Shown: one piece after another, positions 6,377 through 62,446 of the stretch
How the letters are laid out: each line of letters begins with the position of its first letter
Position numbering within the stretch: the stretch's first letter is position 1
Assembly: GCA_015069165.1 (NCBI GenBank)
Contig: SVJD01000001.1
Location: forward strand, 57,485-121,484
DNA from: Oscillospiraceae bacterium
GTDB lineage: Bacteria; Bacillota; Clostridia; UBA1212; UBA1255
Length of the DNA: 64,000 nt
Direction: 5' to 3'
Translations under genes and position numbers: made by a program
The notes under the pieces: model-generated
Told to the model about the DNA's origin: nothing
Seen by the model: only the letters and a program-made list of their open reading frames with translations
Database searches by the model: none

Positions 6377-6405
6377 TTGACTTTAAAAATGATTTTTAAT
6401 ATAAT
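6377..6405 (+). promoter_or_regulatory. Consensus sigma-A promoter: TTGACT, 17-nt spacer, TATAAT
   Basis: TTGACT lies at 6377-6382 and TATAAT at 6400-6405, with an exact 17-nt spacer. A GGGGGA ribosome-binding site sits 8 nt before the ATG at 6446. Confidence 0.6.
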
Positions 6406-6445
6406 GACTCTATTGATCTCACTTCAATAATTTGGGGGATATAAG

Positions 6446-7336
6446 ATGATAACAAATATAGATGTTTTCAATGAAACAATAAAAATTATTAATACAAATG
6501 AATGTTTAAATGTAGAAACAAAAAAAGCAATAAATAATACAGTTATATATGATGAAGGATTTCAATCTATCAAACAACCTGACTGTCAATCTAATGTACG
6601 ATTTGAAGAAAATCTGACACTACTCGCCGCAGAACCGATGGCATTAAATAAAAAAGTTGCCGTTTTAAACTTTGCAAATCCTGTTGAACCTGGTGGAGGG
6701 GTGTTGCGTGGAGCTAACTCACAAGAAGAATATTTATGTCGAGCAAGTAACCTATATCCATGCTTAACTTCAACACAAGCAAAACCATATTACGAACTAC
6801 ATAACAATCTCCTAAAACAAAATAATACCCCCTACTTTCTTTCGACTGATCGTATTATTTATTCAACAAATATTACTGTTATTCGAAAAGATGTAGGATT
6901 TTTTGTAGACAGACCTGATTGTAGAAGCATACAAAGATTTTCAAATAACTGGTACCAAATTGATGTTATTACATGTGCAGCTCCCTATTTTTATAATAAT
7001 ATACCAATATCTGAGGCATTATTGAAAGAACTTCTCAAAAAGCGAATAAAAAACATATTTGAAGTTGCCATTGAAAATGAAATACAAGTTCTTATTCTTG
7101 GCGCCTTTGGATGCGGGGCATTTCATAACCCGCCAATGCTTGTAGCAACCGCGTTTTCTGATGTTTTGCTTGAGAGCCGATATACTAATGCTTTTGAGGA
7201 AGTTATATTTGCAGTAAAAAGAACAGGATTTTTTTGCGAAAATATTGAAGCATTTGAAATCACCTTTTCTGTATTTCCGCCAACAGGCGAATACGTTCTT
7301 AGTGCCGAACGCAACAAGCGTCGCTTTTTTGAGTAA
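6446..7336 (+). CDS. Bacterial-type poly(ADP-ribose) glycohydrolase-like macrodomain protein (DUF2263/TIGR02452)
   Basis: The PARG signature GGG-x6-QEE appears as LNFANPVEPGGGVLRGANSQEEYLCRASNLY. The gene is very AT-rich (about 25% GC). Confidence 0.65.
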   Translation: MITNIDVFNETIKIINTNECLNVETKKAINNTVIYDEGFQSIKQPDCQSNVRFEENLTLLAAEPMALNKKVAVLNFANPVEPGGGVLRGANSQEEYLCRASNLYPCLTSTQAKPYYELHNNLLKQNNTPYFLSTDRIIYSTNITVIRKDVGFFVDRPDCRSIQRFSNNWYQIDVITCAAPYFYNNIPISEALLKELLKKRIKNIFEVAIENEIQVLILGAFGCGAFHNPPMLVATAFSDVLLESRYTNAFEEVIFAVKRTGFFCENIEAFEITFSVFPPTGEYVLSAERNKRRFFE

Positions 7337-7388
7337 TGTTATAGGATTCATTATAATTATAGAATCCGTTATGAACACCCGACCATAA

Positions 7389-7432
7389 AAAATCGGCATG
7401 CCTCTTATGAAGTATGCCGATTTTATTTTTTA
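7389..7432. terminator. Bidirectional terminator between convergent genes
   Basis: A stem AAAATCGGCAT / ATGCCGATTTT is followed by a TTTTATTTTTT run. It lies between the genes ending at 7336 (+) and 7441 (-). Confidence 0.55.
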
Positions 7433-7440
7433 CTTTTAAT

Positions 7441-10116
7441 TTACTGCTTAAGCAGAGGCATTACATCTTCTTCTCTGAGCCGCCATGTATTAATAAAGTC
7501 AAACTCTGCAAATGTCGATTTGTCCTTCATTTGTTCAGAAGATACAGCATTTGCGCCTGAATATTTAGTTCCTGTTGCAGTTGCCGGAGTGCCGTTATCG
7601 AGATAATAACAACCCTTTATACTATCTTCTGCGTTTTGAATTTCACCAGCTATAGAGCCGGAGCTTGTAGCACCCGAAACAGTACCTGTGTTATAGCAAT
7701 TAATAATAGGTGTTTTAGAGAAATCTTTACCAACAATACCGCCGGCAAATTGAACACCGGTTACACTTCCTAAATTGAAACAATCAGATATTTCGTCGTT
7801 GTCATCAAGTGTAGATCTGCCGATAATACCGCCCATATACATTTCGCCTGAAATATTGCCGCTATTCCAACACTTCTGTATATGAAGATTATAGCCCGAC
7901 AAACCTACTATACCGCCGGAACAGTAATACGGCTGAAGAACCCCGCCGTAATCTTCTGTTGTATCATAATCCTCTGCCCAATCATTAGTTACATTTCCAA
8001 GGTTATAGCAATTTTTAATATATGAGTTTGAAACTGAGCCGTAGTTATATCCGAGAATACCGCCTGAAGATACTGAGCAGCCTAAGCCGGACTGTGCGGA
8101 AATATTTCCTGTGTTATAGCAATTCTCAATAGTATCTGCATAATTGTAGCCTTTTATGCCGCCTACATATACAGTAATACTGTATACGTTAAAGGTATTT
8201 TCACAAGATGCATACATTTTCAGATTACCCGTGTTATAGCAGTTGCTTATTTTTCCGTCCTCACCTGCAATGCCGCCTAAAGCGCCGCTTTGTCTTGTTT
8301 TGATATTGATATCGGCTTCGTTATAGCAATTGGTGATAGTTGCACCGTCTGCATTTCCCATTAAACCTCCGAAATCTCCGGAACGCGCAGTAATATCAAT
8401 ACTACCCTTTACAAAGCAGTTATCAATTATACACCCATTTTTGTTATTCCAGCCCATAGTGCTGTTGGATATAGCTCCGCCTGCTGACTCTTTATCCTCT
8501 GTATCTGCAGTATGATTTATTTCCATACCGAGATTCTTAATAGTAGCATTTCCAATATAACCGAAGAGCTGTTTTGACATATTCTTCATTGTATATCCGT
8601 TGCCGTCAAGAACACCGTAGAATACTGCCGGAATATCATATTCCGCAGGGAAAGTGATATCATTCATCAATATGTATTTTGCAGTGTTAATCTCGTTTGC
8701 GTGTACTCTGATAGATGTAAGGAGTGTTGTTTCTCTGGGACAACTGTCTGTAATTTTCTTAAAGTCTTCATAAGAATATATACCTGAATAACCCTCGGGT
8801 ACTTCAGTTTTTTTCTCGACTTCAACAATAAATCCGTCGTGGAGCTCAAAACCGTTGTGAACAACATATTTTTGTTTCATAAGACGAACAAATATGTTAT
8901 TAATCATATTATAATATTCTTCACAGTAATCTGTCTGTGTGTTATACCATTTTTTGATGGTGTCCTCTTCATTTTTAAAGCCGTCAAGCATCTTAGATAT
9001 AACCGAAAGCACTCCTGCATCTTCTTGATTGAGGCTGTATATGAGATACTCTCCGCGAAGATGTGTGGCAATGAGCATTTTATAAAGCTCAGCCTTTGCA
9101 CGAATGTTACTGTAAGTAGCCTGAGCACTGTCGCTCTTAGATACTGTTATTTTGTTGTTTGCCGCAATGAGTGCCTCTGCAATATCTGTCATTGCAACCA
9201 TTTCGTTGTGGCGTCTGAATGTGTTTGTTGTGCCAAAAAGTATATCTCCGCCCATCATTACTGTCTTAAATACAGCTTTACCGGTAGATACGAGAGAATC
9301 AAGGGATTTAAAAGCCTTTTCACCGTAATCTACATAATCTTTTACGACAGTATCAGTTTTATATGCATCAACTTTTTTCAGAAGTCCGAAGCCCAACTTT
9401 CCGAGAAAATTGTCAACGGAAAATACTGCAATCTCTTCTGATGCGGAGGAAACAAAATTCATTCTTTCCTTATACAGAAGCTGATTTGCAGAACGAAGCT
9501 CCCCTGCCGCTTCCTTCATATCCGCATTATCCGTGTTGTCGTAAATTGCTTTAAGGAAAGTTTCTGCGTTCATATAGTTACGAACGCAAAGCTCGTAATA
9601 TTTAAGTTCATTTGTTGTATTTACAGCTAACTCAATTCCTGTCGAAGCAAGCTTGAGTCCGTCGGCAATTTTTTCCGCCGTACCGTCAATTCCCGCAACC
9701 GTTGCAGCAATATCAAAAACATCAAAAGCGTACTCTTTGACATTCTTCATATTGTCATACTGACCTTGCGTTTCAATCTGTTGAGCCAAATCACATTCAA
9801 TAACAGCGATCATGTTTGTAAGCACCTGAGCGTAGTATTTCTTGTCAGGTGTCTCACCTATAACTTTGTTTGCAATGCTTATAAACTTTGATGCTGTCTT
9901 TCTCTCTGCCATCGAATCTACATAAGTCCAATAAGCAAGACCGTCTTTTTTAAAGAACATAGTTTCAACCATGGCTTGAATATTTTCGTAATCGTAGTAA
10001 AGTTCCTCTATATCCGCATCAGTGTACAAAAAGCCGGGATCCTCAGCGCTAACCGTAAATGTAAGAGAAGTTACGCAGATAATAAGAGCAAGTAATATTG
10101 CTGATATTCTTTTCAT
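7441..10116 (-). CDS. Secreted GLUG-motif repeat protein (891 aa)
   Basis: There is an N-terminal signal peptide. The C-terminal half carries about 9 repeats of ..NCYNTGN(I/V)sg...GGI(V/A)G.. (GLUG motif). Confidence 0.5.
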   Translation of the reverse strand: MKRISAILLALIICVTSLTFTVSAEDPGFLYTDADIEELYYDYENIQAMVETMFFKKDGLAYWTYVDSMAERKTASKFISIANKVIGETPDKKYYAQVLTNMIAVIECDLAQQIETQGQYDNMKNVKEYAFDVFDIAATVAGIDGTAEKIADGLKLASTGIELAVNTTNELKYYELCVRNYMNAETFLKAIYDNTDNADMKEAAGELRSANQLLYKERMNFVSSASEEIAVFSVDNFLGKLGFGLLKKVDAYKTDTVVKDYVDYGEKAFKSLDSLVSTGKAVFKTVMMGGDILFGTTNTFRRHNEMVAMTDIAEALIAANNKITVSKSDSAQATYSNIRAKAELYKMLIATHLRGEYLIYSLNQEDAGVLSVISKMLDGFKNEEDTIKKWYNTQTDYCEEYYNMINNIFVRLMKQKYVVHNGFELHDGFIVEVEKKTEVPEGYSGIYSYEDFKKITDSCPRETTLLTSIRVHANEINTAKYILMNDITFPAEYDIPAVFYGVLDGNGYTMKNMSKQLFGYIGNATIKNLGMEINHTADTEDKESAGGAISNSTMGWNNKNGCIIDNCFVKGSIDITARSGDFGGLMGNADGATITNCYNEADINIKTRQSGALGGIAGEDGKISNCYNTGNLKMYASCENTFNVYSITVYVGGIKGYNYADTIENCYNTGNISAQSGLGCSVSSGGILGYNYGSVSNSYIKNCYNLGNVTNDWAEDYDTTEDYGGVLQPYYCSGGIVGLSGYNLHIQKCWNSGNISGEMYMGGIIGRSTLDDNDEISDCFNLGSVTGVQFAGGIVGKDFSKTPIINCYNTGTVSGATSSGSIAGEIQNAEDSIKGCYYLDNGTPATATGTKYSGANAVSSEQMKDKSTFAEFDFINTWRLREEDVMPLLKQ

Positions 10117-27525: not shown

Positions 27526-28548
27526 TTAAAAGCTTATATTAAAAAGTTTTGCGGCATTGTTGCACATAATATCTTCAACATCTTGTTTTGATAATTTAAG
27601 TGCTTCTGCTGCTCTCTTGAAGGCCAAGAGTTCCTCATACATGAAGCATGTAATGTCTTCTCTGTCAGTTTCACGCATGTGTACATCGCCGGAAACATCA
27701 CCGTAAAGACCTCTGGGAACATTGTTATAATAAACGCCGTTTTCGAAAGTACGGAACATTTTCATCTTTAATATCGGCAAATCAGAACCGAACATAAAGC
27801 GCTTTGGTCCTACTGTTTCGAGACATTTAATCATAGCATAGTCGTAGGTATTTGCAGTAAAGTCAAACATCATATTCTTTGTATTTTTCAATACTTCAAA
27901 TGCATTACCCAAATCCTCAGGTGTATACGCTCTGCCAACGTGTGCAACTATAAGCTTTACATTAGGATATTTCTCTTCTATTTCCAAAAGCTGTGCAAGA
28001 TTCAAAGGATCGCGAAGTCTTGCAGGTCTTGAAATATGAAGCATAACGATCCACCCCTTGCGATTAGCAAGCTCCAAATGTTCCGGTGTTAAAAAGTCGA
28101 ATATACGAATTTCACCTGCCGGAATATAGTCGGGTGAATTATTCTGATATGGTTTTAATCCGCAAAAACCGCCCTGCTCTACTTCTTTTTCAAGAAATTC
28201 CGCAGTCATAGAGTGATGTGTGCAATAGAAAGCAGGAAGATTATATTTCTTTGCAGCTTCACTTGTATATTTGTTGTTTTGTGCAAGGTCACACTGAGGC
28301 TCGCCCATCAAAACTGCTTTTACGGTTTTTCCCGGAAACATATCTTTATATGTTTGGAAAAGATCCTCAACAGTATTGTATTCTGCAACCATACTGGTCC
28401 AAGAAACACAAGCTTTTGCATCGCTCTTTTTAATACATTCTTTGGGCCATATATGTATATGACAGTCAATCATTTTCTCAGGTAAAAAATCCTTGAGTTG
28501 TTCCTCATAAATTTTCTTGTCATAAGCTGACATTTCATATCCGAACAT
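27526..28548 (-). CDS. Amidohydrolase-2 family metal-dependent hydrolase (TIM barrel)
   Basis: The metal-binding signature is IDCHIHIW. Confidence 0.6.
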   Translation of the reverse strand: MFGYEMSAYDKKIYEEQLKDFLPEKMIDCHIHIWPKECIKKSDAKACVSWTSMVAEYNTVEDLFQTYKDMFPGKTVKAVLMGEPQCDLAQNNKYTSEAAKKYNLPAFYCTHHSMTAEFLEKEVEQGGFCGLKPYQNNSPDYIPAGEIRIFDFLTPEHLELANRKGWIVMLHISRPARLRDPLNLAQLLEIEEKYPNVKLIVAHVGRAYTPEDLGNAFEVLKNTKNMMFDFTANTYDYAMIKCLETVGPKRFMFGSDLPILKMKMFRTFENGVYYNNVPRGLYGDVSGDVHMRETDREDITCFMYEELLAFKRAAEALKLSKQDVEDIMCNNAAKLFNISF

Positions 28549-32400: not shown

Positions 32401-32483
32401 GCGGATGTGGTGAAATTGGCAGACACGATGGATTTAGGTTCCATTGCGAGAGCGTGCGGGTTCAAGTCCTGTCATCCGCACCA
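32401..32483 (+). tRNA. tRNA-Leu, anticodon UAG (type II, long variable arm)
   Basis: The acceptor stem GCGGATG/CATCCGC is perfect. The anticodon arm is ATGGA-TTTAGGT-TCCAT, there is a long variable arm, the T-loop is GGTTCAAGTCC, and CCA is encoded. Confidence 0.85.
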
Positions 32484-35354: not shown

Positions 35355-36791
35355 TTATGAATTGACAGAATATTCTTTTTTAAAACCATGGGCGCCGAAG
35401 ATTTGCCATTTGCCAATGCCGAGGCGCCCGATAATTGCTTTTCTTTCCTCAGAACAAAGTTTTGGATTTGTATCAACGGAAGTCATCAAAATAGGTGCAT
35501 ATTGATTGTACTCGGCTTGTTCAGGTGTAAGTCCGTGAGTATTTATATAAATATCCCCTGTTAAAGCAATATGATGAGTATAATCAATCAACACAATTTC
35601 TCCCGGCAAATGACCGCCCTTACCTTCATATACTTCAAAATGAAGCTCCTCGAAATCAAAAAAACCGATTTGAGTAAGAGGTTGTGACAAATTATCAACA
35701 ATGTTCCACAAAGCTTTAATTTTATCAGGATTCACAGCCTTATAGGAAGTTAACAATTTACAAATATTGATATATGGCTTGTGAAGAGGGTTCTTTTCTC
35801 TGAATCCGTCGTTTCCAACAAATTCACTTTTTAAGCAAAAAGCCGTTTTTGTACTTGTAATTATTTCATCAAACAAAGGAAGTAAGCCGCAGTGATCAAC
35901 ATCCGCGTGAGTAACTATAATAGTTTTCTTCATTTTATCAAAATCGGGAATAATTTTTTTAAAAATTTTCTGCATCTCAATACTGTAACATGCGTATCCG
36001 CTATCAACAAACAAAAACTTATTATTACTTTTTATAATAATTGTGTTACTGCCGCAAGGAGGTTCTATTAATATTATTTCGGTATTGTCTGTTATTCTGT
36101 GATTACTGATTCGGGGCATAAAATTTCTTTCTTTTGATGCACCGAGTAAATCCGCAAACTTACTTATACTATCAAAAGTTCTGTACGGAGATAATCCTTG
36201 TTCGTCAAGAGTTTGCATAGCAAGATTGACGTGGACCAAAAGTTCACGTCTAATCTCGTCAGAAAGCCCCATTGTTTTGGAGAGACCCATAACATAAGTA
36301 TTATAAAAAATACTATTATCATATACCTTTTCAGAACTGTTATAATTTATGACTCGAACCTTGCAAATTTTTTCAGCCTCTTTTAAAAATTCAGAAATTT
36401 TATCAATATCTTCAACGTACAAACCCATTTTAAAATATTGATATGCAGTTCCGTTTTCCTGAGAACTTATATACGAAATGTTAAAATTAAAATCAGATAT
36501 TAATTCAAGCACATTCACAACACTGCCCGGAATATCTTCAAGACAAAATTCAATCAAAACAACACTTGATTTATTCGTATTACTTTGCAAATAACCGATT
36601 TTTTCAAGTTCTGTATCAGCTTTCTTTAACTGTTCTTCCGTACCTTCTGCATCTATAAAGAGTGTATGCGAATCAACAGCTTTGTTATAACTTACACGAG
36701 TTATATTTATCCCTAAAGCAGAAAAACACTTACTTGCTTTTAAAAAAGCACCGATATGATTAGGCATTGATGTCACGTAAGTCTTTTTCAT
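35355..36791 (-). CDS. Tandem ACT-domain protein fused to MBL-fold metallo-hydrolase
   Basis: Two N-terminal ACT-like units precede an MBL motif THADVDHCGL. It is the last gene of the T-box operon. Confidence 0.55.
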   Translation of the reverse strand: MKKTYVTSMPNHIGAFLKASKCFSALGINITRVSYNKAVDSHTLFIDAEGTEEQLKKADTELEKIGYLQSNTNKSSVVLIEFCLEDIPGSVVNVLELISDFNFNISYISSQENGTAYQYFKMGLYVEDIDKISEFLKEAEKICKVRVINYNSSEKVYDNSIFYNTYVMGLSKTMGLSDEIRRELLVHVNLAMQTLDEQGLSPYRTFDSISKFADLLGASKERNFMPRISNHRITDNTEIILIEPPCGSNTIIIKSNNKFLFVDSGYACYSIEMQKIFKKIIPDFDKMKKTIIVTHADVDHCGLLPLFDEIITSTKTAFCLKSEFVGNDGFREKNPLHKPYINICKLLTSYKAVNPDKIKALWNIVDNLSQPLTQIGFFDFEELHFEVYEGKGGHLPGEIVLIDYTHHIALTGDIYINTHGLTPEQAEYNQYAPILMTSVDTNPKLCSEERKAIIGRLGIGKWQIFGAHGFKKEYSVNS

Positions 36792-37230
36792 AATTTACCA
36801 CCTGATTTTTGCATTTTACAATAGCTTCAGTGACATCTGTTAAGACAAGTTCACCGTTTTGATTATATGCATCAATTCTAATTTCTACCAATCCGTTTTT
36901 GGAGTTTCTTTTTTCGAGTTTTGTAATAATTGCCTTTCCTATCAAAACATCATCAGCAAATACAGGTTTTAACCACTCTATTTTAGTGGACTTCCCTGCC
37001 AATAATTCATTGCCGAAAAAATCAACTTCGAGATATTTTGCCCATACAGACATAAAAGACATTACCCCCGGAGCAATAAGCTTACCAAAAGGTGTAGTTT
37101 TTGCATATTCCTCATCGGTATGAAGAGGAATATTGTCATAATCTCGAGCAAAATCTATCATTTTTTCTTTTTTTATAACGGCGGCAGATATTTCCACCGC
37201 CATACCAATTTCCAAATCGTCAAAATACAT
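36760..37230 (-). CDS. MaoC-like (R)-hydratase/dehydratase, hot-dog fold
   Basis: The 156-aa protein is MaoC-like. Confidence 0.65.
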   Translation of the reverse strand: MYFDDLEIGMAVEISAAVIKKEKMIDFARDYDNIPLHTDEEYAKTTPFGKLIAPGVMSFMSVWAKYLEVDFFGNELLAGKSTKIEWLKPVFADDVLIGKAIITKLEKRNSKNGLVEIRIDAYNQNGELVLTDVTEAIVKCKNQVVNYEKDLRDINA

Positions 37231-37231: not shown

Positions 37232-39685
37232 TTACAATCCTAACATTTCAACCGACATATCACGCATTTTGTATTTTAATATTTTACCTGCGGCATTCAT
37301 CGGAAATTCATCTACGAAAACAAAGTATTTAGGTACTTTATGTCTTGCAATGGAGGCATTTCCGTATTCTTTCATTTCGGCTTCATCAGAAGTTTCACCT
37401 TTATGAAGAATAATCCAAGCGCAACATTCTTCGCCGTATTTTTCATCCGGAACACCAACTACTTGAACATCGCGAACTTTAGGATTTGTTAAATAAAACT
37501 CTTCAATTTCACGAGGATAAAGGTTTTCACCACCGCGAATAATCATATCTTTCAAACGACCCGTAACTTTATAGTAACCATCGGGTGTTCTCATACAAAT
37601 ATCTCCGGAATGGAGCCATCCGTCAGCATCAATTGCTTGAGCCGTAGCCTCAGGCATTTTATAATAACCCTTCATAATGTTAAATCCGCGTGCAACAAAT
37701 TCTCCGCTTTCTCCATCAGGAAGTTCATTTCCTGTTTCGGGGTCGATAATCTTACATTCAACACCGGGGAAAGCACTGCCAACAGTTTCTACACGGTGGT
37801 CAAGATCCTCGTTTACCTCACCCATTGTACAACCGGGAGATGCTTCTGTCTGACCGTAAACCGAAATAATTTCACGCATATTCATTTCAACGGAAGCACG
37901 GCGCATCAAATCTGCCGGGCAGTTTGCACCGGCCATGATACCTGTTCGCATATATGAAAAATCAGTCTTTGCAAAATCAGGATGATTGAACATAGCGATA
38001 AACATCGTGGGAACACCATTAAAGCAAGTGATACGTTCATCGTTTACACACGCAAGAGAAGACTTTGGTGAGAAATATGGAATAGGGCAAAGTGTACCGC
38101 CGTGTGTCATCATAGATGTCATAGAAAGTACCATTCCGAAGCAATGGAACATAGGCACCTGAATCATCATTCGATCAGCAGTAGACAAATCCATTCTGTC
38201 ACCAATAGTTTTTCCGTTGTTTACGATATTGCGGTGAGTAAGCATAACTCCTTTGGGGAAACCTGTTGTACCGGAAGTATATTGCATATTACATACATCG
38301 TCGGGTTTAACGAGAGAAGCACGTCTTCTGACCTCTTCACGAGGAACAAGCGAAGAACGCGAAAGCATTTGCTCCCAAGTAAGACAACCTTCCATATCAA
38401 AACCAACTGTTACGACATTACGAAGGAACGGCAAATTCTTGGAATACAGAGGTTTTCCCGGTTCAAGTGTCTTGAGTTCGGGGCAAAGTTCTTCGATAAT
38501 CTCTTTATAATTTATATCTTTGCAATACTCAATCATAACGAGCGTATGAGTATCGGATTGTTTGAGCAAATATTCGATTTCGTGAATCTTATACGCAGTG
38601 TTAACTGTAACCAAAACAGCACCGATTTTAGTCGTTGCCCAGAATGTAATAAACCATTGAGGAACGTTTGTTGCCCAAATAGCAACGTGATCTCCGGCTT
38701 TTACACCCAAAGAGATAAGTGCTGCTGCACATTCGTCTACATCACGACGGAATTGCTCGTAAGTTCTTGTATAGTCCAATGTGGGATACTTAAAAGCAAA
38801 TTGATCGGGATATGTTTCTGCCATTGTGTCAAGTACTTCTGAAAATGTAGCATCAATAACATCATACTTTTTCCATACGAAAGTACCTGTTTTTGAACGA
38901 TTATAATAAGCATGATCAAATGTTTTCTTTTCACGGTTAAGTGCAGAAATATAATTCGTGAAATGTGTCAAAACAATATCAGCATCACTGATTTCTTCAT
39001 TCCAAGCAGCACAGATGAAGCCCTCATAATTTAAAGAAGAGAGCGCATTCAGTACCTTACTTACATCTAAATCTCCCTCACCTATCAAAACTGTTTTGCC
39101 GTCTTTCATATCGCCGAGACGAACATACTTGATATATGCTCCTAAATTTTTAATTGTCGTTTCTGCTGATTCGCCCGCATCAAAATAAGTTCTTCTTACA
39201 TTCCAAGAAACACCGATATTAGCAAAAGCGAAATGATTAATAATACCTATTACATTTTCTGTATGTGCAAGGCTTCCTACAGTTTCGAACAAAATCATAA
39301 CATCTGAAGCTTCCGCACGCTTAATGGCAACAGATAATTTTGCATCTAACACATCAAAAGGTACATTATTTTCTGCTCTGACAATTACATTTTCAATACT
39401 GGCGGAAGCTGCCATATCAACGTATTTTTCAATAAGTTCAGCAGTAATTTCTTCATTTTCAACAGAACCGGGCACACGCAAAGCAGAAACAGACAAAGTT
39501 CTGTTAACCAGTTTTCTTTTTGCATCAGCAACACGATCACGCCTTAAGATACTGTCGTGATGTGCGTTTCTTTCTTTAATTGCATCATATATTTCAAAAC
39601 CCTCAAAACCGTAGTCGTAGGCATATCTGCATATATCAAGAAAAGATGCGCGACTAACATTTTTAGTTGAAAAAACAATTTTCAT
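37232..39685 (-). CDS. Fusion: xylose-isomerase-like TIM-barrel domain plus AMP-dependent acyl-CoA synthetase/ligase
   Basis: The N-terminal ~270 aa form a sugar-phosphate isomerase/epimerase-like barrel. The C-terminal part carries the AMP-binding motif YTSGTTGFPKGV and has the acyl-CoA synthetase fold. The start was trimmed to MKIVFSTKN and is translationally coupled to the upstream gene. Confidence 0.6.
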   Translation of the reverse strand: MKIVFSTKNVSRASFLDICRYAYDYGFEGFEIYDAIKERNAHHDSILRRDRVADAKRKLVNRTLSVSALRVPGSVENEEITAELIEKYVDMAASASIENVIVRAENNVPFDVLDAKLSVAIKRAEASDVMILFETVGSLAHTENVIGIINHFAFANIGVSWNVRRTYFDAGESAETTIKNLGAYIKYVRLGDMKDGKTVLIGEGDLDVSKVLNALSSLNYEGFICAAWNEEISDADIVLTHFTNYISALNREKKTFDHAYYNRSKTGTFVWKKYDVIDATFSEVLDTMAETYPDQFAFKYPTLDYTRTYEQFRRDVDECAAALISLGVKAGDHVAIWATNVPQWFITFWATTKIGAVLVTVNTAYKIHEIEYLLKQSDTHTLVMIEYCKDINYKEIIEELCPELKTLEPGKPLYSKNLPFLRNVVTVGFDMEGCLTWEQMLSRSSLVPREEVRRRASLVKPDDVCNMQYTSGTTGFPKGVMLTHRNIVNNGKTIGDRMDLSTADRMMIQVPMFHCFGMVLSMTSMMTHGGTLCPIPYFSPKSSLACVNDERITCFNGVPTMFIAMFNHPDFAKTDFSYMRTGIMAGANCPADLMRRASVEMNMREIISVYGQTEASPGCTMGEVNEDLDHRVETVGSAFPGVECKIIDPETGNELPDGESGEFVARGFNIMKGYYKMPEATAQAIDADGWLHSGDICMRTPDGYYKVTGRLKDMIIRGGENLYPREIEEFYLTNPKVRDVQVVGVPDEKYGEECCAWIILHKGETSDEAEMKEYGNASIARHKVPKYFVFVDEFPMNAAGKILKYKMRDMSVEMLGL

Positions 39686-39686
39686 T

Positions 39687-41075
39687 TTATGCCTCCTCGA
39701 AAACGATTTTGTTAAGTGCATTCAAATATGCTCTTATACTTGCAGCAATGATATCCGTAGAAGTACCATTACCAGAATAAAGCTTACCGTTATTGCGGAG
39801 TCTTACAAGAGCAGAACCTAAAGCGTCCTTTCCTTCTGTTACAGACTGTACCTGGAAATCATCAAGTTCATAATGATGACCGATGCACTGTTCGATTGCA
39901 CGAAAAGCAGAGTCAACAGGACCTTCACCGTTACTTACACCGCAAATAATTTCACCGTTACATTTTAAAATTACTTGCGACATAGAACTTGATACATTGC
40001 TGCTCGTAGTTGTATATGACTCCAAATGATACGTAGAAGGAGCCTGCATAGCATAACTTGCAATAAGTGCTTCAAATTCTCTTGAACCTATTGCGCCCTT
40101 TTTGTCACACAAATGCTTGAGAGCCTTAAATACATTTCCAACGTCTGAATCAGAAAGTTCATAACCCAATACTTCCGCAGCTTGAGTAACCTGCGCCAAA
40201 GTAGAATCTGAATCAAGTAATATTTTTTTCTTTTCACTTATTTCATTATCGTTTTCATATGCTTCATGGTTAATACGCAAAAGCATATCATCAATACTTG
40301 AATGAATTTTCGTATTGTTTAACTTAATTTCAGCATTAATTTGTCCGCCGCAAGCATTTATTGCATCAGAAATCTCTCCTGTTAAAAGCACATCTTTTCC
40401 AACCATTGCGCATTTAATTCCGTCTGCACCTTTTGAAATTGCAGAAAAAGCAGAAGCAACTGCCATATTTATACGGTCAGAAAGTTTAACGTAAACGGGA
40501 ATGCTTACGGTTGCCTTTACCTTTGCAACTAAAGCAGCAATATCGTCAGGTGTTGAAACCCCTGCTTCGTCACATATTGTAATTGTTTTAGCACCGTTGT
40601 TTTCAGCTTCTTTAACAGCTGAAATAAGAAAATCTTCATCTGCTCTTGTAGCATCAAGTGCAGAAAATTCAACATCATCACAAAGTGTTTTTGCTGCTTT
40701 TGTAAGTTCTGCAATTTTCTCAAGCATTTTCGACTGCTTTATATGATATGTGTATTCCATTTGAATTGTCGAAACGGGCAATTCAACTTGAAGTCCGGGC
40801 TTTTTTGCATCTTTTACACATCCCCACGCAGATGTAACATCTTCTGTATTATATCCTACCGGTATTGTTAAAGCCGCATTTTGTATATTTTGAGCAATTG
40901 TTTTATAAATAATAGTATCTTCTCGAAGTGATTTTACCGCCGGAAGTTCGATGGCATCAACACCAATTGTATCTGCACAGTTAGCGATAGCGGATTTTTC
41001 ACGGAATAGCAAATTAAGTGCACGCTCCTCTGCGAGCTTTTTAAGCGTAATGTCCGTAACAATGATTCTTTTCAT
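39687..41075 (-). CDS. LeuA/HMGL-family homologue with degenerate catalytic motifs and intact LeuA C-terminal regulatory domain
   Basis: DTTLRDGEQ is replaced by DITLKKLAEE. The HxH(N)D metal site is replaced by KLSDRINMAVASAF. The C-terminus GEGPVDSAFRAIEQ...GKDALGSALV...GTSTDIIAASIRAYLNALNKI aligns with the allosteric domain of LeuA. It is the first gene after T-box leader 1. Confidence 0.6.
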   Translation of the reverse strand: MKRIIVTDITLKKLAEERALNLLFREKSAIANCADTIGVDAIELPAVKSLREDTIIYKTIAQNIQNAALTIPVGYNTEDVTSAWGCVKDAKKPGLQVELPVSTIQMEYTYHIKQSKMLEKIAELTKAAKTLCDDVEFSALDATRADEDFLISAVKEAENNGAKTITICDEAGVSTPDDIAALVAKVKATVSIPVYVKLSDRINMAVASAFSAISKGADGIKCAMVGKDVLLTGEISDAINACGGQINAEIKLNNTKIHSSIDDMLLRINHEAYENDNEISEKKKILLDSDSTLAQVTQAAEVLGYELSDSDVGNVFKALKHLCDKKGAIGSREFEALIASYAMQAPSTYHLESYTTTSSNVSSSMSQVILKCNGEIICGVSNGEGPVDSAFRAIEQCIGHHYELDDFQVQSVTEGKDALGSALVRLRNNGKLYSGNGTSTDIIAASIRAYLNALNKIVFEEA

Positions 41076-41398
41076 TTTTGAAAACCCCTTTCAAATTGTG
41101 TAAATATAATAAATTTTTGTAACAAAAAAACGTTTCCATCTCGTTGTTACTACAAAGAGACGAAAACGTTAAAAAAAACTAAATTTCCGCGGTACCACTC
41201 TTCTTCATCCAAAACAGGATGCACCTTAGATGCTATCACATCTTAACTCTGTTACGGGAGTTCCCGTCTGCCACTACTTAAACTTTCATGTCAGCCGCTC
41301 CGCGGTGAGTTCAGCAAAATTCTCACAGTGTCTTGCACCATCCGACACCTCTCTGTTAGTAAAGCATATTGCATACTACTCCGCATCTTCGCGTTTAC
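41076..41398 (-). promoter_or_regulatory. T-box riboswitch leader (with promoter TTGACA at 41429-41434 and intrinsic terminator about 41121-41170)
   Basis: On the minus strand the AGAGAGG GA-motif is followed by the T-box sequence AGAGTGGTACCGCGG (plus-strand CCGCGGTACCACT at 41187-41199). After that comes a 14-bp terminator helix AACGTTTTCGTCTC/GAGATGGAAACGTT plus U7, and then an AAAGGGG ribosome-binding site. Confidence 0.7.
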
Positions 41399-41441
41399 TT
41401 GACACAGAATATCATTTTTTATTTGTATTGTCAATAAAAAA

Positions 41442-41873
41442 TTACAATTTACATACATCAGCTTCCGTTACAATTTTAAAACCTGCATTCGAAAGAACGT
41501 TTTCTGCGGCTTTGTTATCTTCTACACGGACAACAACGTAAGCGTGTTTTTCAGTACGGGTCATAAAAGCGTACAAATATTCCATATTGATTTTGTTTTC
41601 ATCAAGAACTTTCAATGCCTCAGAAAGTTTGCCGGGTTCATCACTGATTTTTACACCGACAACATCGGTTATCTTTATAAGATATCCTGCTTCATTAAGA
41701 ATTCTTTCGGCCATTGTCTCATTGTCAACAATCAAACGCAAAATACCAAACTCCTGAGTTTCTGCAATTGAAAGTGCTCTGAGATTAATATTGTGTTTTG
41801 AAAGAGTTTCTGTAATTGAAACTATTGATCCTTGTTTGTTTTCAACAAATACAGTTAATTGCTTAATTGCCAT
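41442..41873 (-). CDS. ACT-domain protein (pairs with PaaK-like ligase)
   Basis: The 143-aa protein has two ACT-like halves. Confidence 0.55.
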   Translation of the reverse strand: MAIKQLTVFVENKQGSIVSITETLSKHNINLRALSIAETQEFGILRLIVDNETMAERILNEAGYLIKITDVVGVKISDEPGKLSEALKVLDENKINMEYLYAFMTRTEKHAYVVVRVEDNKAAENVLSNAGFKIVTEADVCKL

Positions 41874-41894
41874 AATAAATTCCCCTTTCTGATA

Positions 41895-43202
41895 TTACAC
41901 AAGTTTTCTCTTATCAATAACGCGGACAGCTTTACCTTCACTTCTTGCAATGCTTTTCGGTGCTACAAGATGAACAGCAGGATTGATGCCGAGCATGGCT
42001 TTCATTGCATTTGCAAGAGCTTTTTCCATAGAAAGAATTTCGCTGAGTTTATCGGTGAACTTTTCAGGTGTCATTTCAACGTTAACTTCAAATGTATCGG
42101 TATTTTTAACACGGTCTACAACAATCTGATAGTTTGGCTGATAACCTTCACTTAAAAGAACTGTTTCTATTTGACTCGGGAATACATTAACTCCGCGAAT
42201 AATAAGCATGTCATCTGTTCTTCCCATAGGTTTTGCCATTTTCACAAGAGTTCTGCCACAAGAACACTTTTTACGTGAAAGAACACAAATATCACGTGTG
42301 CGGTAACGCAAAAGCGGAAACGCTTCCTTATCGAGTGAAGTGAACACAAGCTCACCTTTACTTCCTTCGGGAAGTACTTCACCTGTATCAGGATCGATAA
42401 TCTCGGCATAGAAGTGGTCTTCATTTATATGCATGCCTGTTTGCTCGCTACACTCAAATGCAACTCCCGGACCGGTTGTTTCCGTCAGACCGTATATATC
42501 GTAAGCTTTAATTCCGAGTGTTTCTTCAATACTGCGGCGCATTTCCTCTGTCCAAGGCTCTGCACCGAAAATTCCAGCTTTTAGCGGAATATCTTCAGGT
42601 TTATATCCTTGCTCTTTCAATGTTTCACCGATATAAGCGGCATAAGATGGTGTACAGCAAATAATTGATGCACTAAGATCCATCATGAACTGGATTTGTC
42701 TTTCTGTATTACCTGATGACATAGGAAGTGTCAAACAACCAACCTTATGTGAGCCACCGTTAAGACCGGGACCTCCTGTGAATAAGCCGTAACCGTATGC
42801 AACCTGACAAACATCTTTTTTAGTTCCGCCTGCTGCAGTAATTGCACGTGCGCAACAATCTTCCCAAAGGTCAATATCGTGTTGTGTGTAAAAAGCAACA
42901 ACACGTCTGCCTGTTGTACCTGATGTTGACTGAATACGAACACAATCCTCAAGGGGTTTTGCTAAAAGTCCATATGGATATGCATCTCTCAAATCGGCTT
43001 TTGAGATAAACGGAAGTTTGTGCAAGTCATCAATACCTTTGATATCTTCAGGTTTTACACCTTTCTCGTCCATAAGATTACGGTAATACGGTACATTTTC
43101 ATATACGTGTTTTACCTGCTTAACGAGTTTTTCTGATTGAAGTTTTTTCATATCTTCAATCGGCATTGTTTCAATTTCTTTTTGATAATAGTTTTGTGCC
43201 AT
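41895..43202 (-). CDS. Phenylacetate-CoA ligase family (PaaK-like aryl-CoA ligase)
   Basis: The protein is PaaK-like throughout (QSTSGTTGRRVV, YGLTE). The start was trimmed to MAQNYYQKEIETM, which has an AGGGTGG ribosome-binding site. Confidence 0.7.
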   Translation of the reverse strand: MAQNYYQKEIETMPIEDMKKLQSEKLVKQVKHVYENVPYYRNLMDEKGVKPEDIKGIDDLHKLPFISKADLRDAYPYGLLAKPLEDCVRIQSTSGTTGRRVVAFYTQHDIDLWEDCCARAITAAGGTKKDVCQVAYGYGLFTGGPGLNGGSHKVGCLTLPMSSGNTERQIQFMMDLSASIICCTPSYAAYIGETLKEQGYKPEDIPLKAGIFGAEPWTEEMRRSIEETLGIKAYDIYGLTETTGPGVAFECSEQTGMHINEDHFYAEIIDPDTGEVLPEGSKGELVFTSLDKEAFPLLRYRTRDICVLSRKKCSCGRTLVKMAKPMGRTDDMLIIRGVNVFPSQIETVLLSEGYQPNYQIVVDRVKNTDTFEVNVEMTPEKFTDKLSEILSMEKALANAMKAMLGINPAVHLVAPKSIARSEGKAVRVIDKRKLV

Positions 43203-43565
43203 TTTGACCACCCTTTCTTTTTGCTTACGGAGTGAGAAAAGCAATAAAAAACGCCCTCCGCATTCCGATAAAGAATACAGAGGACGAGAAAATCAATAAT
43301 CCCGTGGTACCACCTCAGTTCGCTGTCATCTCACAACAACAGCCTTGTCAGGTACTATCATACCTTAGTTCTATAACGGGAACACCCGTTGCATCCTACT
43401 TAAGAAAAAAACTTGTTCAGCGCACTGCTAACAGAATGAATTCGAGAAGGACGTAAACTTTGCCTCGCACCAACCGGCAACTCTCTCCAGAATCGTTCCG
43501 ACCTACTGGTTTCTGATCATCGCATTTAGTTTCAATTACACACAAAAGTTAAACACAACTTTCAT
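43203..43565 (-). promoter_or_regulatory. T-box riboswitch leader 2 (promoter TTGACT...TATATAAT at about 43571-43610 on the minus strand)
   Basis: On the minus strand a short Stem I (AGAGAG, UUGCC, loop, GGCAA, AGUUUACGU) is followed by the T-box GAGGTGGTACCACGGG (plus-strand CCCGTGGTACCACCTC at 43301-43316). Then comes a terminator CGTCCTCTG...CGGAGGGCG plus U6, about 35 nt before the start codon. Confidence 0.65.
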
Positions 43566-59321: not shown

Positions 59322-61058
59322 ATGGCAACGCCAATTATTATGCCCCGTCAGGGCCAATCAGTTGAAAGCTGTATTATTTCTAATTGGGCCAAGAAAGTTG
59401 GAGACAAAGTTGCAGTAGGCGACACATTATTCACTTATGAAACCGACAAAGCTACGTTCGACGAAGAAGCAAAAGTTGAAGGTACTATGTTGGTTCATTT
59501 TTTTGATGAAGGTGACGATGTTCCTTGTCTTACAAACGTTTGCGTTATCGGTAACGACGGCGAAGACTTTTCTGCATTTTCTCCCAACGGTGCTGTAGCT
59601 GCTCCCGCTGCAGTAGAAGCACCTGCTGCCCCCGCTGCACCTGCAGCTCCTGTTGCTGCCGCACCTGCTCCTGCAGCTCCGGTAGGATCCAAATCAAATG
59701 CAAATCCTGTTATTATGCCCCGTCAGGGACAATCAGTTGAAAGCTGCATTATTTCAAAGTGGAATGTTAAAGTAGGCGATCAAGTTAAAGTCGGCGACAA
59801 TCTTTTCACTTATGAAACAGACAAAGCTACATTTGATGAAGAATCAAAATTCGAAGGAACAGTTCTTGCAATCTTCTTCGCTGAAGGCGATGACGTTCCT
59901 TGCCTTACAAATGTTTGCGTTATCGGTGCTCCCAATGACACTTTTGCAGAGTTCGATCCTAACGCATCAGCAGCACCTGTTGAAGCTGCTCCCGCTACTG
60001 CAGAAGCGCCCGTAGCTCAAGCTCCGGTTGCACAAGCAGCTGCTCCCGCTCCCGTAGTAAACAACGAGGGCAAAATATTTATTTCACCCAGAGCTAAAAA
60101 TTGTGCTGAAAGAGCCGGCGTTAATCCCGCATTCATCGCAGGTACAGGCCCTTACGGCAGAATTATTGAAAGCGACGTTAAAAACTTCATCGCAGCCGGC
60201 GGTAATACTACATACGCAGCAAGCGGTGTTGCACAAGCTGACATGAACGCTACAGGTTTCGCAGGAAAAATTTCCGTTGCAGACCTTAACGCTCCTAAAG
60301 CTCCCGCAGAAGCTGCTCCTTCAGTTGCTCCTGTTGCAGAAGCTCCTAAGAGCGATGCTGATTTCGAAGATGTTAAGATTCCGAATATCCGTAAAGTTAT
60401 TTCCAAATCAATGCATGCTTCCCTTTCAACAATGGCTCAGCTCACACTCAACGCTTCTTTCGATGCAACAAATATCCTTGCATTCAGAAAACAGCTTAAA
60501 GAGAACAAAGACAAGCTCGGTCTTAACAACATCACAATCAACGACATTATCATCTACGCTGTATCAAGAACAATTCTTGCTCACAAAGATCTTAATGCAA
60601 ACTTCATTAACGATGGTACAACAATGCGTTACTTCAAAAACGCACACATCGGTGTTGCTGTTGATACTCCCAGAGGTCTTATGGTTCCCACAGTGATGGA
60701 TGCTAACCTTAAATCACTCAATGATATTTCCGCAGAGGCTAAAAAGCTCGCAACAGATGCTCAGGCAGGAACAATCAACCCTGACCTTCTCAAAGGCGGC
60801 ACATTTACAATTACAAACCTCGGTACAATGGGAATTGAGTCATTTACACCTGTTATCAATCCTCCTCAAACAGGAATTCTCGGTGTTAATACTCTTGAAA
60901 CACGCGTTAAAAATGTTAACGGTGAGATGAAAATGTATCAAGCAATGACACTTTCTCTTACATTCGACCACAGAGCATTGGACGGCGCTCCGGCTGCCAG
61001 ATTCCTCCAAGACCTCTGCAAGAATCTTGAGAATTTCACAATGCTTTTGATTAAATAA
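59322..61058 (+). CDS. 2-oxo acid dehydrogenase E2 (dihydrolipoamide acetyltransferase) with two lipoyl domains
   Basis: Two xETDKA lipoyl-lysine motifs are present, joined by Ala/Pro-rich linkers. A peripheral subunit-binding domain follows, and the catalytic DHRxxDG motif appears as TFDHRALDGA. Confidence 0.85.
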   Translation: MATPIIMPRQGQSVESCIISNWAKKVGDKVAVGDTLFTYETDKATFDEEAKVEGTMLVHFFDEGDDVPCLTNVCVIGNDGEDFSAFSPNGAVAAPAAVEAPAAPAAPAAPVAAAPAPAAPVGSKSNANPVIMPRQGQSVESCIISKWNVKVGDQVKVGDNLFTYETDKATFDEESKFEGTVLAIFFAEGDDVPCLTNVCVIGAPNDTFAEFDPNASAAPVEAAPATAEAPVAQAPVAQAAAPAPVVNNEGKIFISPRAKNCAERAGVNPAFIAGTGPYGRIIESDVKNFIAAGGNTTYAASGVAQADMNATGFAGKISVADLNAPKAPAEAAPSVAPVAEAPKSDADFEDVKIPNIRKVISKSMHASLSTMAQLTLNASFDATNILAFRKQLKENKDKLGLNNITINDIIIYAVSRTILAHKDLNANFINDGTTMRYFKNAHIGVAVDTPRGLMVPTVMDANLKSLNDISAEAKKLATDAQAGTINPDLLKGGTFTITNLGTMGIESFTPVINPPQTGILGVNTLETRVKNVNGEMKMYQAMTLSLTFDHRALDGAPAARFLQDLCKNLENFTMLLIK

Positions 61059-61075
61059 GAAAGAGGTGCATTTAC

Positions 61076-62446
61076 ATGGTATATGATTTAATCGTTATCG
61101 GTGGCGGACCGGCCGGATATCTTGCAGCAGAGCGCGCAGGACATGCAGGCCTCAACACACTCCTTATCGAGAAAAGATTTATCGGCGGTGTTTGCCTTAA
61201 TGAAGGTTGTATTCCTTCAAAAGCTCTTCTCTACTCCGCTAAAATCTTTGACGGTGCTGCTCACGGCGAGAAATACGGTGTTTCCGTAAAAGACATTAAA
61301 CTCGACCACAATTTCGTAGTTGAGCGTAAAAACAAAGTTGTTAACACTCTCGTTAGCGGTATCAAATCAAAACTCAAAAAGAACAAAGTTACTGTTGTTA
61401 TGGCAGAAGGTAAAATTGCAGGCAGAACAGCTGAAGGTTTCAATGTTACTGCAGGCGACCAGACATACACAGGCGCTAAACTCTTAATAGCTACAGGTTC
61501 AGTACCTGTAACTCCTCCGATTCCCGGTGTTAAAGAAGGACTTGAGTCAGGTTTCGTAGTAACAAACCGCGAAATCCTTGACCTCAAAGAAGTTCCTGAG
61601 AAATTCACAATTATCGGCGGCGGCGTTATCGGTCTCGAAATGGCATCATACTTCAATACAGCAGGTTCAAAAGTTACTGTTATTGAAATGATGGACAAAA
61701 TCGCAGGACCTACTGACAGAGAAATCTCTGAAATACTCCTCAAAAACTACCAGAAAAAAGGTATTACTTTCAATCTCGGTTGTAAAGTTGTTGGGGTTGA
61801 GCCCGGTAAAGTTCTCTATGAGCTCGAAGGCAAAACATACGAAGTTCCCTCTGATAAAGTTCTTCTCAGTATCGGCAGACGTGCTTTCACAGAAGGTCTC
61901 GGACTCGAAACAATCGGTGTTGAAACTGAAAGAGGAAAAATCAAAACTGATAACAAAGGACGCACAAACATTGCCGGTGTTTATGCTACAGGTGACGTTA
62001 ACGGTTATTCAATGCTTGCACACACAGCATACCGTGAAACAGAAGTAGCTATTAACGATATTCTCGGCATTAAGGATACAATGCGTTACAATGCTATCCC
62101 TTCTGTAATTTACACTAACCCTGAAGTTGCAGGTGTTGGCGAAACAGAAGAAACAGCAAAAGCTAAAGGTATTGATTATGAGGTAGCTAAACTTTCAATG
62201 ATGTACTCAGGCAGATACGTTGCTGAAAATGAAGGCGGAGATGGTATCATCAAAGTTCTCATTAACAAGAAATACAGAAACGTTATCGGCGTACACATGA
62301 TTGGTAACTATTCTTCAGAGATTATATACGGTGCAGGTATCATGATTGAAACAGAAATGCCTGTTAAAGATATCAAAAAGCTCGTATTCCCTCACCCTTC
62401 AGTATGCGAAGTAATTCGTGAAGGTATTTTCGAATTTAACGACTAA
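61076..62446 (+). CDS. lpd: Dihydrolipoyl dehydrogenase (E3)
   Basis: The FAD site is GGGPAGY, the redox disulfide is GGVCLNEGCIPSK, and the C-terminal HPS motif is HPSVCE. Confidence 0.9.
   Translation: MVYDLIVIGGGPAGYLAAERAGHAGLNTLLIEKRFIGGVCLNEGCIPSKALLYSAKIFDGAAHGEKYGVSVKDIKLDHNFVVERKNKVVNTLVSGIKSKLKKNKVTVVMAEGKIAGRTAEGFNVTAGDQTYTGAKLLIATGSVPVTPPIPGVKEGLESGFVVTNREILDLKEVPEKFTIIGGGVIGLEMASYFNTAGSKVTVIEMMDKIAGPTDREISEILLKNYQKKGITFNLGCKVVGVEPGKVLYELEGKTYEVPSDKVLLSIGRRAFTEGLGLETIGVETERGKIKTDNKGRTNIAGVYATGDVNGYSMLAHTAYRETEVAINDILGIKDTMRYNAIPSVIYTNPEVAGVGETEETAKAKGIDYEVAKLSMMYSGRYVAENEGGDGIIKVLINKKYRNVIGVHMIGNYSSEIIYGAGIMIETEMPVKDIKKLVFPHPSVCEVIREGIFEFND

Follow-up and report, generated by a model that had tools for sequence, protein, structure and literature searches.

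A 64,000-nucleotide stretch of the Oscillospiraceae bacterium contig SVJD01000001.1 (positions 57,485 to 121,484 of the forward strand), referred to here as the window, carries on its minus strand a gene (39687-41075) for a 462-amino-acid relative of the leucine-biosynthetic enzyme LeuA. This LeuA-like protein has lost the catalytic parts of LeuA and keeps the C-terminal regulatory domain, and its gene lies between a T-box leader and the gene for an acyl-CoA ligase. The reading that we somewhat favor is that the protein is a leucine-sensing pseudoenzyme subunit, descended from LeuA, by which an isovalerate-CoA ligase is regulated on the rumen-type carboxylation route from isovalerate to leucine. 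A broader version is plausible, a shade short of an even chance; in it the pseudoenzyme serves that ligase as its own leucine-sensing allosteric subunit, the module marks long-missing genes of the pathway, and with counterparts for isoleucine, valine, and phenylalanine it belongs to a set of T-box-gated, sensor-equipped ligases of gut and rumen Clostridia.

The coordinates of the LeuA-like open reading frame are exact and include the stop codon; a ribosome-binding site, AAAGGGG, lies upstream on the same strand. The protein divides into three regions, all encoded on the minus strand: an HMGL-like (DRE-TIM) barrel without metal ligands (residues 1-226, 40398-41075; defined by alignments), a shortened linker/subdomain region (residues 227-342, 40050-40397; defined by alignment and AlphaFold2), and a LeuA_dimer allosteric domain (residues 343-462, 39690-40049; defined by Pfam and alignment). 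The Pfam matches cover residues 24-226 for HMGL-like (PF00682, E=1e-30) and residues 331-457 for LeuA_dimer (PF08502, E=3.5e-32, model positions 4-130 of 131). By these matches, the homology of the open reading frame to LeuA is clear and far above chance.

An earlier reading of the window, made from the sequence alone, had described the gene as a LeuA paralogue that lacks the catalytic motifs, and all the strings that it quoted are reproduced when the protein is aligned with MAFFT to E. coli K-12 LeuA (b0074), to which it is 27% identical. The E. coli motif DTTLRDGEQ corresponds to DITLKKLAEE, so that RD becomes KK; the substrate arginine and the metal-ligand aspartate are both replaced by lysine. 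In the HxH region, where HTHDDLGLAVGNSLAAV is aligned with KLSDRINMAVASAFSAI, HTH becomes KLS (HxH to KxS), and both histidine ligands are therefore lost. In the C-terminal domain GNGPVDAVYQAINRI is aligned with GEGPVDSAFRAIEQCI, and a stretch beginning GKDALG is aligned with GKDALG...GTSTDIIAASIRAYLNALNKI. The same alignment reveals losses that go beyond the sequence-only reading, as do the pathway context and the degenerate ligase domain considered below: the GERAGN loop is deleted (10 amino acids), the subdomain that carries the catalytic histidine (HxSGIHQD; AFAHSSGIHQDG) is deleted (about 26 amino acids), and Glu226 in E. coli numbering, the glutamate of VEG/C, is a lysine. Barrel residues that remain in common with LeuA are D8, T10, S102, E136, D141, R144, D169, and P176. 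The same substitutions appear when residues 2-226 are aligned by phmmer to solved isopropylmalate synthase (IPMS) barrels in the PDB; in that comparison E107 and Y108 of the LeuA-like protein also occur in the true IPMS of Listeria and Neisseria.

The predicted fold of the protein has outlasted these losses. AlphaFold2, given an alignment of 61 family sequences, produced a confident model (pLDDT 89.5) in which only residues 270-282 are disordered, and the modeled barrel superposes on Listeria IPMS (3ewb) with a root-mean-square deviation of 1.7 A and a TM score of 0.92, the metal ligands being replaced. The best full-length structural matches of the model are MAM synthase (6e1j) and M. tuberculosis LeuA. 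By fold and regulatory domain the protein belongs to the LeuA superfamily; its scores against the NCBIfam LeuA equivalogs are far below the cut-offs (252.5 bits at best against 532; 190-227 against 598-748 for the others). Judged by the residues that it retains, the LeuA-like protein cannot carry out a LeuA-type Claisen condensation, as the sequence-only reading had maintained, and its assignment as a pseudoenzyme is solid at the level of alignment and model. Because the catalytic hallmarks of LeuA are missing from it, its classification as an isopropylmalate synthase is to be avoided.

The loss is shared by a whole family. When 1.84 billion cluster representatives were searched exhaustively with HMMER, full-length relatives of 455-480 amino acids, 29-49% identical to the LeuA-like protein, turned up in more than 100 clusters (at 50% identity); true LeuAs (at least 500 amino acids, matched as two stretches) start only at about 200 bits and below. 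Among 106 family representatives none keeps the Asp14/His202/His204 set (E. coli numbering): the former metal-ligand positions are variable or serine, the column of the substrate arginine holds R, K, C, or another residue, and both the GERAGN loop and the HxSGIHQD subdomain are absent from all 106. Nor is there, anywhere in these 106 sequences, a compensating conserved histidine, aspartate, or glutamate, or a new polar set at the old site. That catalytic residues might be supplied from a shifted position, the escape that the sequence-only reading had allowed for, is thus unlikely, because no replacement residues are conserved there.

Selection on the family follows the same division into domains. 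For 70 close pairs, the ratio of nonsynonymous to synonymous substitution (dN/dS) is 0.11 in the barrel, 0.10 in the linker, and 0.025 in the regulatory domain. Mean pairwise identity within the family is 35% in the barrel, 28% in the linker, and 58% in the regulatory domain, as against 48%, 38%, and 35%, respectively, in four intact LeuAs; constraint is inverted relative to true LeuA, and the regulatory domain is the most conserved part. Loss of catalytic residues under purifying selection (dN/dS 0.03-0.11) is what characterizes a pseudoenzyme, and the pattern, with the more than 100 clusters that share the losses, indicates that the LeuA-like gene is not a one-off decay product. Residues F24, P100, and K113 are invariant in this family only.

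Two groups of further relatives were encountered in the search. P0243, P0254, and P0258 are LeuA relatives of about 500 amino acids that have GERAGN and most of the metal ligands, with a degenerate HxSGIHQD region and some other residues substituted; they may be intermediates or a separate divergent subfamily. The short sequences among P0240-P0268 that join a family-type LeuA_dimer C-terminus to other N-termini were considered as new architectures and rejected; what they carry at the N-terminus is a mixture of unrelated fragments (MFS, TGT, response regulator, MBOAT, Laminin_G_3), so they are treated as, and most likely are, chimeric metagenome assemblies.

The regulatory domain is where a ligand would be expected to bind. 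The LeuA_dimer domain of the LeuA-like protein aligns to those of true LeuAs with zero gaps. A phmmer search of the PDB with this domain alone returned nothing relevant, and the structural matches come instead from a profile of its alignment with true LeuAs, which matches the regulatory domains of Leptospira citramalate synthase (3f6g, E=4e-10) and M. tuberculosis LeuA. In the profile alignment the M. tuberculosis segment G531-N-G-P-L535-A536 corresponds to G383-E-G-P-V387-D388, V551 to L404, Y554 to F407, A558 to S411, and A565 to A418; we take these M. tuberculosis residues to line the leucine site, and their citramalate synthase counterparts presumably line the isoleucine site. The pocket-equivalent columns (G, G, P, I/V, D, L, F, A/S, A, G) are 93-100% conserved within the family, and leucine-inhibited E. 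coli LeuA has the same residues at the presumed pocket columns, in keeping with the claim of the sequence-only reading that the allosteric domain is well conserved. Conserved residues of the domain include GxGP[IV]D, L404, F407, A418, G420, and D441. On this resemblance, the LeuA-like protein may bind leucine. Two features of the domain are specific to the family, a strand with the sequence HYELDDFQ and a glycine or alanine in place of the glutamate of TDI[IV]E[AS]S; both could mark a new interface.

The gene directly downstream encodes a fusion, of about 817 amino acids, of a xylose-isomerase-like TIM domain (AP_endonuc_2) with an ANL acyl-CoA ligase (37232-39685, minus strand). Its AMP-binding (PF00501, E=1.4e-95) and AMP-binding_C (PF13193, E=6.9e-16) domains identify it as an ANL acyl-CoA ligase. 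The ligase open reading frame as listed starts 12 codons too early (39686-39721, minus strand): homologues are 817-823 amino acids long and begin with MKI or MKL, and the start is probably M13 of the listed frame, at 39685, 1 nt after the stop codon of the LeuA-like gene. With this start there is no 35-nt overlap between the two genes.

This pairing was followed through 80 close loci from species-representative genomes, all of them metagenome-assembled genomes (MAGs) of ruminant/gut Clostridia, in which the LeuA-like relatives are 64-81% identical to that of the window, and through eight distant loci. The TIM-ligase fusion lies immediately downstream of the LeuA-like gene in all 80 close loci, where the contig extends, and the pair is found in the eight distant loci as well, in members as remote as 49, 43, 42, 39, 37, 33, and 29% identity; the distant representative P0189, on a 1.6-kb contig without flanking genes, lies outside this count. 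A single nucleotide separates the stop codon of the LeuA-like gene from the ATG of the ligase in 63 of 82 cases, and in 80 of the 82 the distance is at most 11 nt. Judged by gene order and spacing, the LeuA-like gene and the TIM-ligase gene make up a constant module of two translationally coupled genes. Over the 80 close loci the ligase part is 90-97% identical, as against 64-81% for the LeuA-like protein; in four distant loci with complete genes it is about 70% identical to that of the window, with 31-35% for the TIM domain and 33-42% for the LeuA-like protein. Since the ligase is far more conserved than both TIM-barrel parts, it appears to be the conserved catalytic core, with the TIM parts evolving like accessory modules.

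The TIM domain of the ligase has a history of its own. In most of the distant clades (L082 and L086-L089 were compared) it keeps the xylose-isomerase-type metal motifs ET, WDxxH, HxHxKD, and EW. In the window (38870-39685, minus strand), and likewise in L084, these motifs are missing and WNVRR, YVRLGD, and AAWN stand instead, so that the module of the window clade contains two degenerate TIM barrels. Either the metal site of the ligase TIM domain is dispensable or an ancestral activity of the leucine branch has been abandoned in this clade. A phmmer search of the PDB with the domain gave only a weak match, to MJ1311.

Expression of the module is placed under leucine control by its leader. A T-box leader (41153-41398, minus strand) matches RF00230 over the full model (1-219) and scores 125.4 bits, where the gathering threshold is 93, and the LeuA-like gene is the first gene after it, as the sequence-only reading had it. 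The cmscan alignment and the sequence give the specifier codon as CUC (Leu; 41307-41309, minus strand) in the context GAA-CUC-A (41306-41312), and the T-box sequence UGGUACCGCG is present. An intrinsic terminator predicted by RNA folding (41123-41169, minus strand) consists of a hairpin (41130-41169) with a 13-bp stem and a 4-bp apical stem, followed by the U tract UUUUUUU; in the alignment its 5' arm overlaps the 3' arm of the T-box antiterminator. By score, specifier context, T-box sequence, and terminator, the leader is assigned as a Leu-specific T-box. Directly 5' of it lies a promoter-like site of the sigma-70 type, TTGACA-17-TATTCT, with a TG before the -10 element (41406-41434, minus strand); this is a match to the consensus only, at 10 of 12 positions.

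Leaders from the other loci give a consistent assignment of amino acids to ligase types. All the loci together yielded 127 T-box leaders, which were aligned, and the codon was read at the specifier column. Before LeuA-like genes, 69 leaders are readable, with CTC in 67, CTG in one, and CCC in one; by cmscan the CUC specifier also occurs in four distant lineages. Other T-box leaders precede ligase paralogues that bear N-terminal HTH_19 and Cupin_2 domains, and these fall into two sets by their identity to the HTH-cupin ligase of locus L082, whose leader has the specifier GUA. Paralogues less than 61% identical to it (n=29) have ATC (Ile) in 28 leaders and GTA in one, a truncated hit of the other paralogue; those at least 61% identical (n=15) have GTA (Val) in all 15. 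The specifier thus matches the paralogue in 43 of the 44 HTH-cupin leaders, the exception being the truncated hit. PaaK genes (n=9) are preceded by TTC (Phe) in eight cases and TGC in one. Locus L005 has three leaders, with AUC, GUA, and CUC by cmscan; its three T-box-gated ligases (5615-8918) are mirrored in L009, L010, L015, L018, L020, L021, L025, and others. The HTH-cupin domains fused to the Ile and Val ligases may be the counterparts of the LeuA-like sensor.

The enzymes encoded around the module in related loci suggest the pathway in which the ligase takes part. The L082 operon contains two HTH-cupin-ligases, a CbiA-like gene, a four-subunit 2-oxoacid:ferredoxin oxidoreductase (delta-alpha-beta-gamma), an Aminotran_4 gene (branched-chain aminotransferase), and an Amidohydro_2 gene, with the LeuA-like/TIM-ligase pair last; L089 carries the same set, and tblastn with the L082 proteins as queries finds a cluster of this type within 9 kb in about 25 of the 80 loci. 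Ligase, oxidoreductase, aminotransferase, and cognate T-boxes are therefore co-encoded in about 25 related loci, in L082, and in L089, and the window has the ligase module only. The association of oxidoreductase and aminotransferase with Ile, Val, and Leu T-box ligases points to leucine made from isovalerate.

Rumen bacteria have long been known from physiological work to make leucine by carboxylation of isovalerate (Allison, 1962, 1966, as cited in PMC7356843). The classical routes, as outlined in that source, lead from isovalerate to leucine, 2-methylbutyrate to isoleucine, isobutyrate to valine, and phenylacetate to phenylalanine, in each case by way of an acyl-CoA that a ferredoxin-dependent 2-oxoacid oxidoreductase carboxylates reductively before transamination (PMC7356843). 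The T-box specifiers Leu, Ile, Val, and Phe match these four routes, and the metabolic assignment of the module is well supported by comparative genomics, with isovalerate as the probable substrate of the ligase. Isocaproate and 2-hydroxyisocaproate were also considered as substrates and were set aside, as the gene content gives them no support.

Under the favored reading, uncharged tRNA-Leu would cause read-through at the T-box, and the ligase and the LeuA-like protein would be made together. The ligase would convert isovalerate to isovaleryl-CoA, which the 2-oxoacid:ferredoxin oxidoreductase would reductively carboxylate to 2-oxoisocaproate, and the branched-chain aminotransferase would form leucine from this product. 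The LeuA-like protein, probably dimeric through its regulatory domains as LeuA is, would be docked on the ligase, perhaps (this is a guess) by contact of its dead barrel with the TIM domain of the ligase; when leucine is plentiful, leucine bound in the regulatory pocket would throttle isovalerate activation. A fast feedback inhibition would in this way be added to the slower control by the T-box. The invariant adjacency of the two genes and their 1-nt spacing lend indirect support to a putative complex with the ligase that would transmit the inhibition by leucine.

Several observations weigh against this reading. Leucine binding and contact with the ligase are predictions from sequence, the ligand-contact residues being those presumed for M. 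tuberculosis LeuA and Leptospira citramalate synthase, and isovalerate is a substrate assigned from context only. Purifying selection (dN/dS of about 0.1) extends to the barrel and linker, which contain the family-only invariant residues F24, P100, and K113, so that the N-terminal part presumably does something that a sensor model leaves unspecified. The TIM domains with metal motifs in distant clades could signal an enzymatic step specific to the leucine branch, and Amidohydro_2 is a frequent neighbor that the model does not explain. Finally, tblastn finds no oxidoreductase or aminotransferase in the window itself; these must lie elsewhere in that genome. The constrained barrel and linker, the TIM metal motifs, and Amidohydro_2 keep two alternatives, a scaffold and a new enzyme, at a modest probability.

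The alternative that survives best, although unlikely, is that the dead LeuA dimer serves as an adaptor or channeling scaffold that bridges the ligase to the oxidoreductase or aminotransferase and hands on isovaleryl-CoA or 2-oxoisocaproate; the regulatory domain would then mainly dimerize, and leucine binding would be irrelevant. Purifying selection on the barrel and linker would fit such a role, as would the position of the family-only invariant residues in surface loops, the tight coupling to the ligase gene, and the fact that LeuA_dimer, as its Pfam name says, is also the dimerization domain of LeuA. However, the most conserved residues (GxGP[IV]D, L404, F407, A418, and G420) are those of the presumed pocket and not only of an interface; the genes for the oxidoreductase and aminotransferase often lie away from the pair, as in the window, so that the ligase alone is constant; and the Ile and Val branches share the oxidoreductase without any scaffold of this kind.

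It is rather improbable that the remodeled barrel, perhaps in concert with the ligase TIM domain and Amidohydro_2, is a new enzyme or a substrate-binding subunit that serves a leucine-branch reaction without a LeuA-type metal site. Such a role could account for the retention of E136, D141, R144, D169, and S102 and for the invariance of K113, E107, and Y108 on the catalytic face, for the metal-binding motifs kept in the distant TIM-ligase domains, for the recurrence of Amidohydro_2 beside the module, and for the confinement of these extra parts to the leucine branch. Yet E107 and Y108 are shared with true IPMS, as noted above, the former metal-ligand and substrate-arginine positions are variable with no new conserved polar set, and the module of the window clade is intact and under selection although its ligase TIM domain is without metal motifs. 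In the established pathway, moreover, the conversion of isovaleryl-CoA through 2-oxoisocaproate to leucine requires no further enzyme.

There is also a slight chance that the protein senses leucine (or 2-oxoisocaproate) and acts on another target, such as the oxidoreductase, the aminotransferase, or a transporter. The conserved regulatory domain suits this possibility, but the TIM-ligase is the only invariant neighbor over 29-100% identity, and a gap of 1 nt is what co-translated subunits typically show. It is very improbable that the protein is an active isopropylmalate, citramalate, or homocitrate synthase that draws catalytic residues from other positions: the overall LeuA fold and domain order would allow it, and one family member (P0115) is labeled 2-isopropylmalate synthase by JGI, but all three metal ligands have been substituted, deletions have taken away the GERAGN loop and the histidine-bearing subdomain, no compensating residue is conserved in the 106 representatives, and the NCBIfam equivalog scores are less than half of the cut-offs. 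A functionless, decaying leuA relic, to which the lost catalytic motifs might point, is ruled out for practical purposes by intact full-length frames in more than 100 clusters, dN/dS of 0.03-0.11, a confident predicted fold, and conserved synteny and T-box control.

The remainder of the operon in the window is less constant than the pair. In the order promoter-like site, T-box, terminator, LeuA-like gene, and TIM-ligase gene, the last two positions are taken by a co-transcribed MaoC-like hydratase (36760-37230, minus strand) and a protein with an ACT domain and a metallo-beta-lactamase fold (35355-36791, minus strand), both identified by Pfam. The sequence-only reading had proposed a regulatory or scaffolding subunit for the downstream ligase and hydratase; the ligase has held up as the invariable partner, and the hydratase has not. 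MaoC is near the module in one of the 80 loci (L014), not directly after the ligase, and by this distribution is a passenger specific to the window. The ACT/metallo-beta-lactamase protein is likewise rejected as a core partner, being near the module only in L024, L039, L041, and L062 of the 80 loci. Amidohydro_2 (PF04909; about 265 amino acids) often adjoins the TIM-ligase gene (in L010, L018, L021, L015, L005, L069, L089, and others); it is missing from the operon of the window, and the Amidohydro_2 gene at 27526-28548 (minus strand) belongs to an unrelated context.

Other features of the window touch on amino acid supply. A second T-box (43277-43529, minus strand; 101.7 bits), with a UUC (Phe) specifier, precedes genes for a PaaK-type phenylacetate-CoA ligase (41895-43244, minus strand) and a separate ACT-pair protein (41442-41873, minus strand); the region 41442-43529 looks like a phenylacetate-to-phenylalanine salvage system with its own amino-acid-binding partner. 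A tRNA-Leu gene (32401-32483, plus strand) has the anticodon TAG, which does not decode CUC by standard pairing, and is thus probably unrelated to the T-box. At the edge of the window (59322-62446, plus strand) are genes for a lipoyl-E2 acyltransferase with two lipoyl domains and then a dihydrolipoyl dehydrogenase (E3); E2 and E3 of a 2-oxoacid dehydrogenase complex are unexpected beside a ferredoxin-based anaerobic salvage system.

If the favored reading is correct, the family would clearly exemplify an enzyme that lives on as a sensor, whereas LeuA relatives are otherwise known for giving up the regulatory domain on the way to new enzymes; a Claisen condensase would have passed on its allosteric domain, dead barrel included, for the control of an adenylate-forming enzyme to which it is unrelated. 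In addition, the module would provide an entry by sequence into isovalerate carboxylation, a pathway familiar from physiological work since the 1960s and relevant to rumen nutrition, in which branched-chain volatile fatty acids are growth factors; since the ligases for Leu, Ile, Val, and Phe are marked by their T-box specifiers, every one of the assignments can be tested directly. Pfam/KEGG-style labeling of these proteins as 2-isopropylmalate synthase would miscredit thousands of gut and rumen MAGs with the first step of de novo leucine synthesis; the NCBI equivalog cut-offs avoid this mislabeling and leave the proteins "hypothetical." A general design for salvage ligases is suggested, in which an RNA switch is combined with a dedicated amino-acid-binding protein or domain. 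No published description of the LeuA-like family or of ligase genes for the isovalerate pathway was found in the full-text literature, the coverage of which is incomplete, so that an earlier description is possible; the literature yielded background on the rumen pathway only, and a RegPrecise paper on riboswitch regulons makes no mention of these genes.

The LeuA-like protein can be compared with several known systems. With LeuA itself (E. coli b0074; M. tuberculosis LeuA, 1sr9/3fig), a Claisen-condensing DRE-TIM enzyme, it shares the HMGL-like barrel, linker, and LeuA_dimer domain in the same order, the gapless alignment of the regulatory domain, in which the GxGP[IV]D loop and hydrophobic pocket residues are kept, and a tie to leucine supply and leucine-responsive control. 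It differs from LeuA in being without metal ligands, in having lysine in place of the substrate arginine (a variable position in the family), in being about 50 amino acids shorter as a result of the GERAGN and HxSGIHQD deletions, in having the regulatory domain, not the barrel, as its most conserved part, and in having a gene for an acyl-CoA ligase, not leuBCD, as its partner. MAM synthase (6e1j) and the truncated citramalate and homocitrate synthases belong to the same superfamily and also illustrate modular loss within LeuA; they have kept catalysis and dropped the sensor, whereas the LeuA-like family has done the reverse.

The classical rumen routes agree with the ligase, oxidoreductase, and aminotransferase of the related loci and with the hosts, ruminant-gut Clostridia. 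That work was physiological, and as far as was found it did not assign the ligase genes or the LeuA-like accessory protein. IlvN, the small subunit of AHAS, and ACT-domain proteins resemble the proposed arrangement in placing a separate amino-acid-binding polypeptide beside a committing enzyme, and the Phe system of the window has the same layout; in contrast to these, the LeuA-like sensor consists of LeuA_dimer with a dead TIM barrel and is encoded upstream of its ligase.

Most likely, the LeuA-like protein works like a pseudoenzyme regulatory subunit, and the closest functional analogy appears to be HisZ. HisZ is a catalytically dead paralogue of HisRS that serves as the histidine-sensing regulatory subunit of the short-form ATP phosphoribosyltransferase, and both the HisZ-HisG complex and its allostery are established experimentally. 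Each would be a dead paralogue drawn from the metabolism of the same amino acid that it senses, with the binding site kept and feedback exerted on the first committed enzyme. For the LeuA-like protein the complex and the effect of leucine are only inferred, and the two proteins are unrelated in fold and family.

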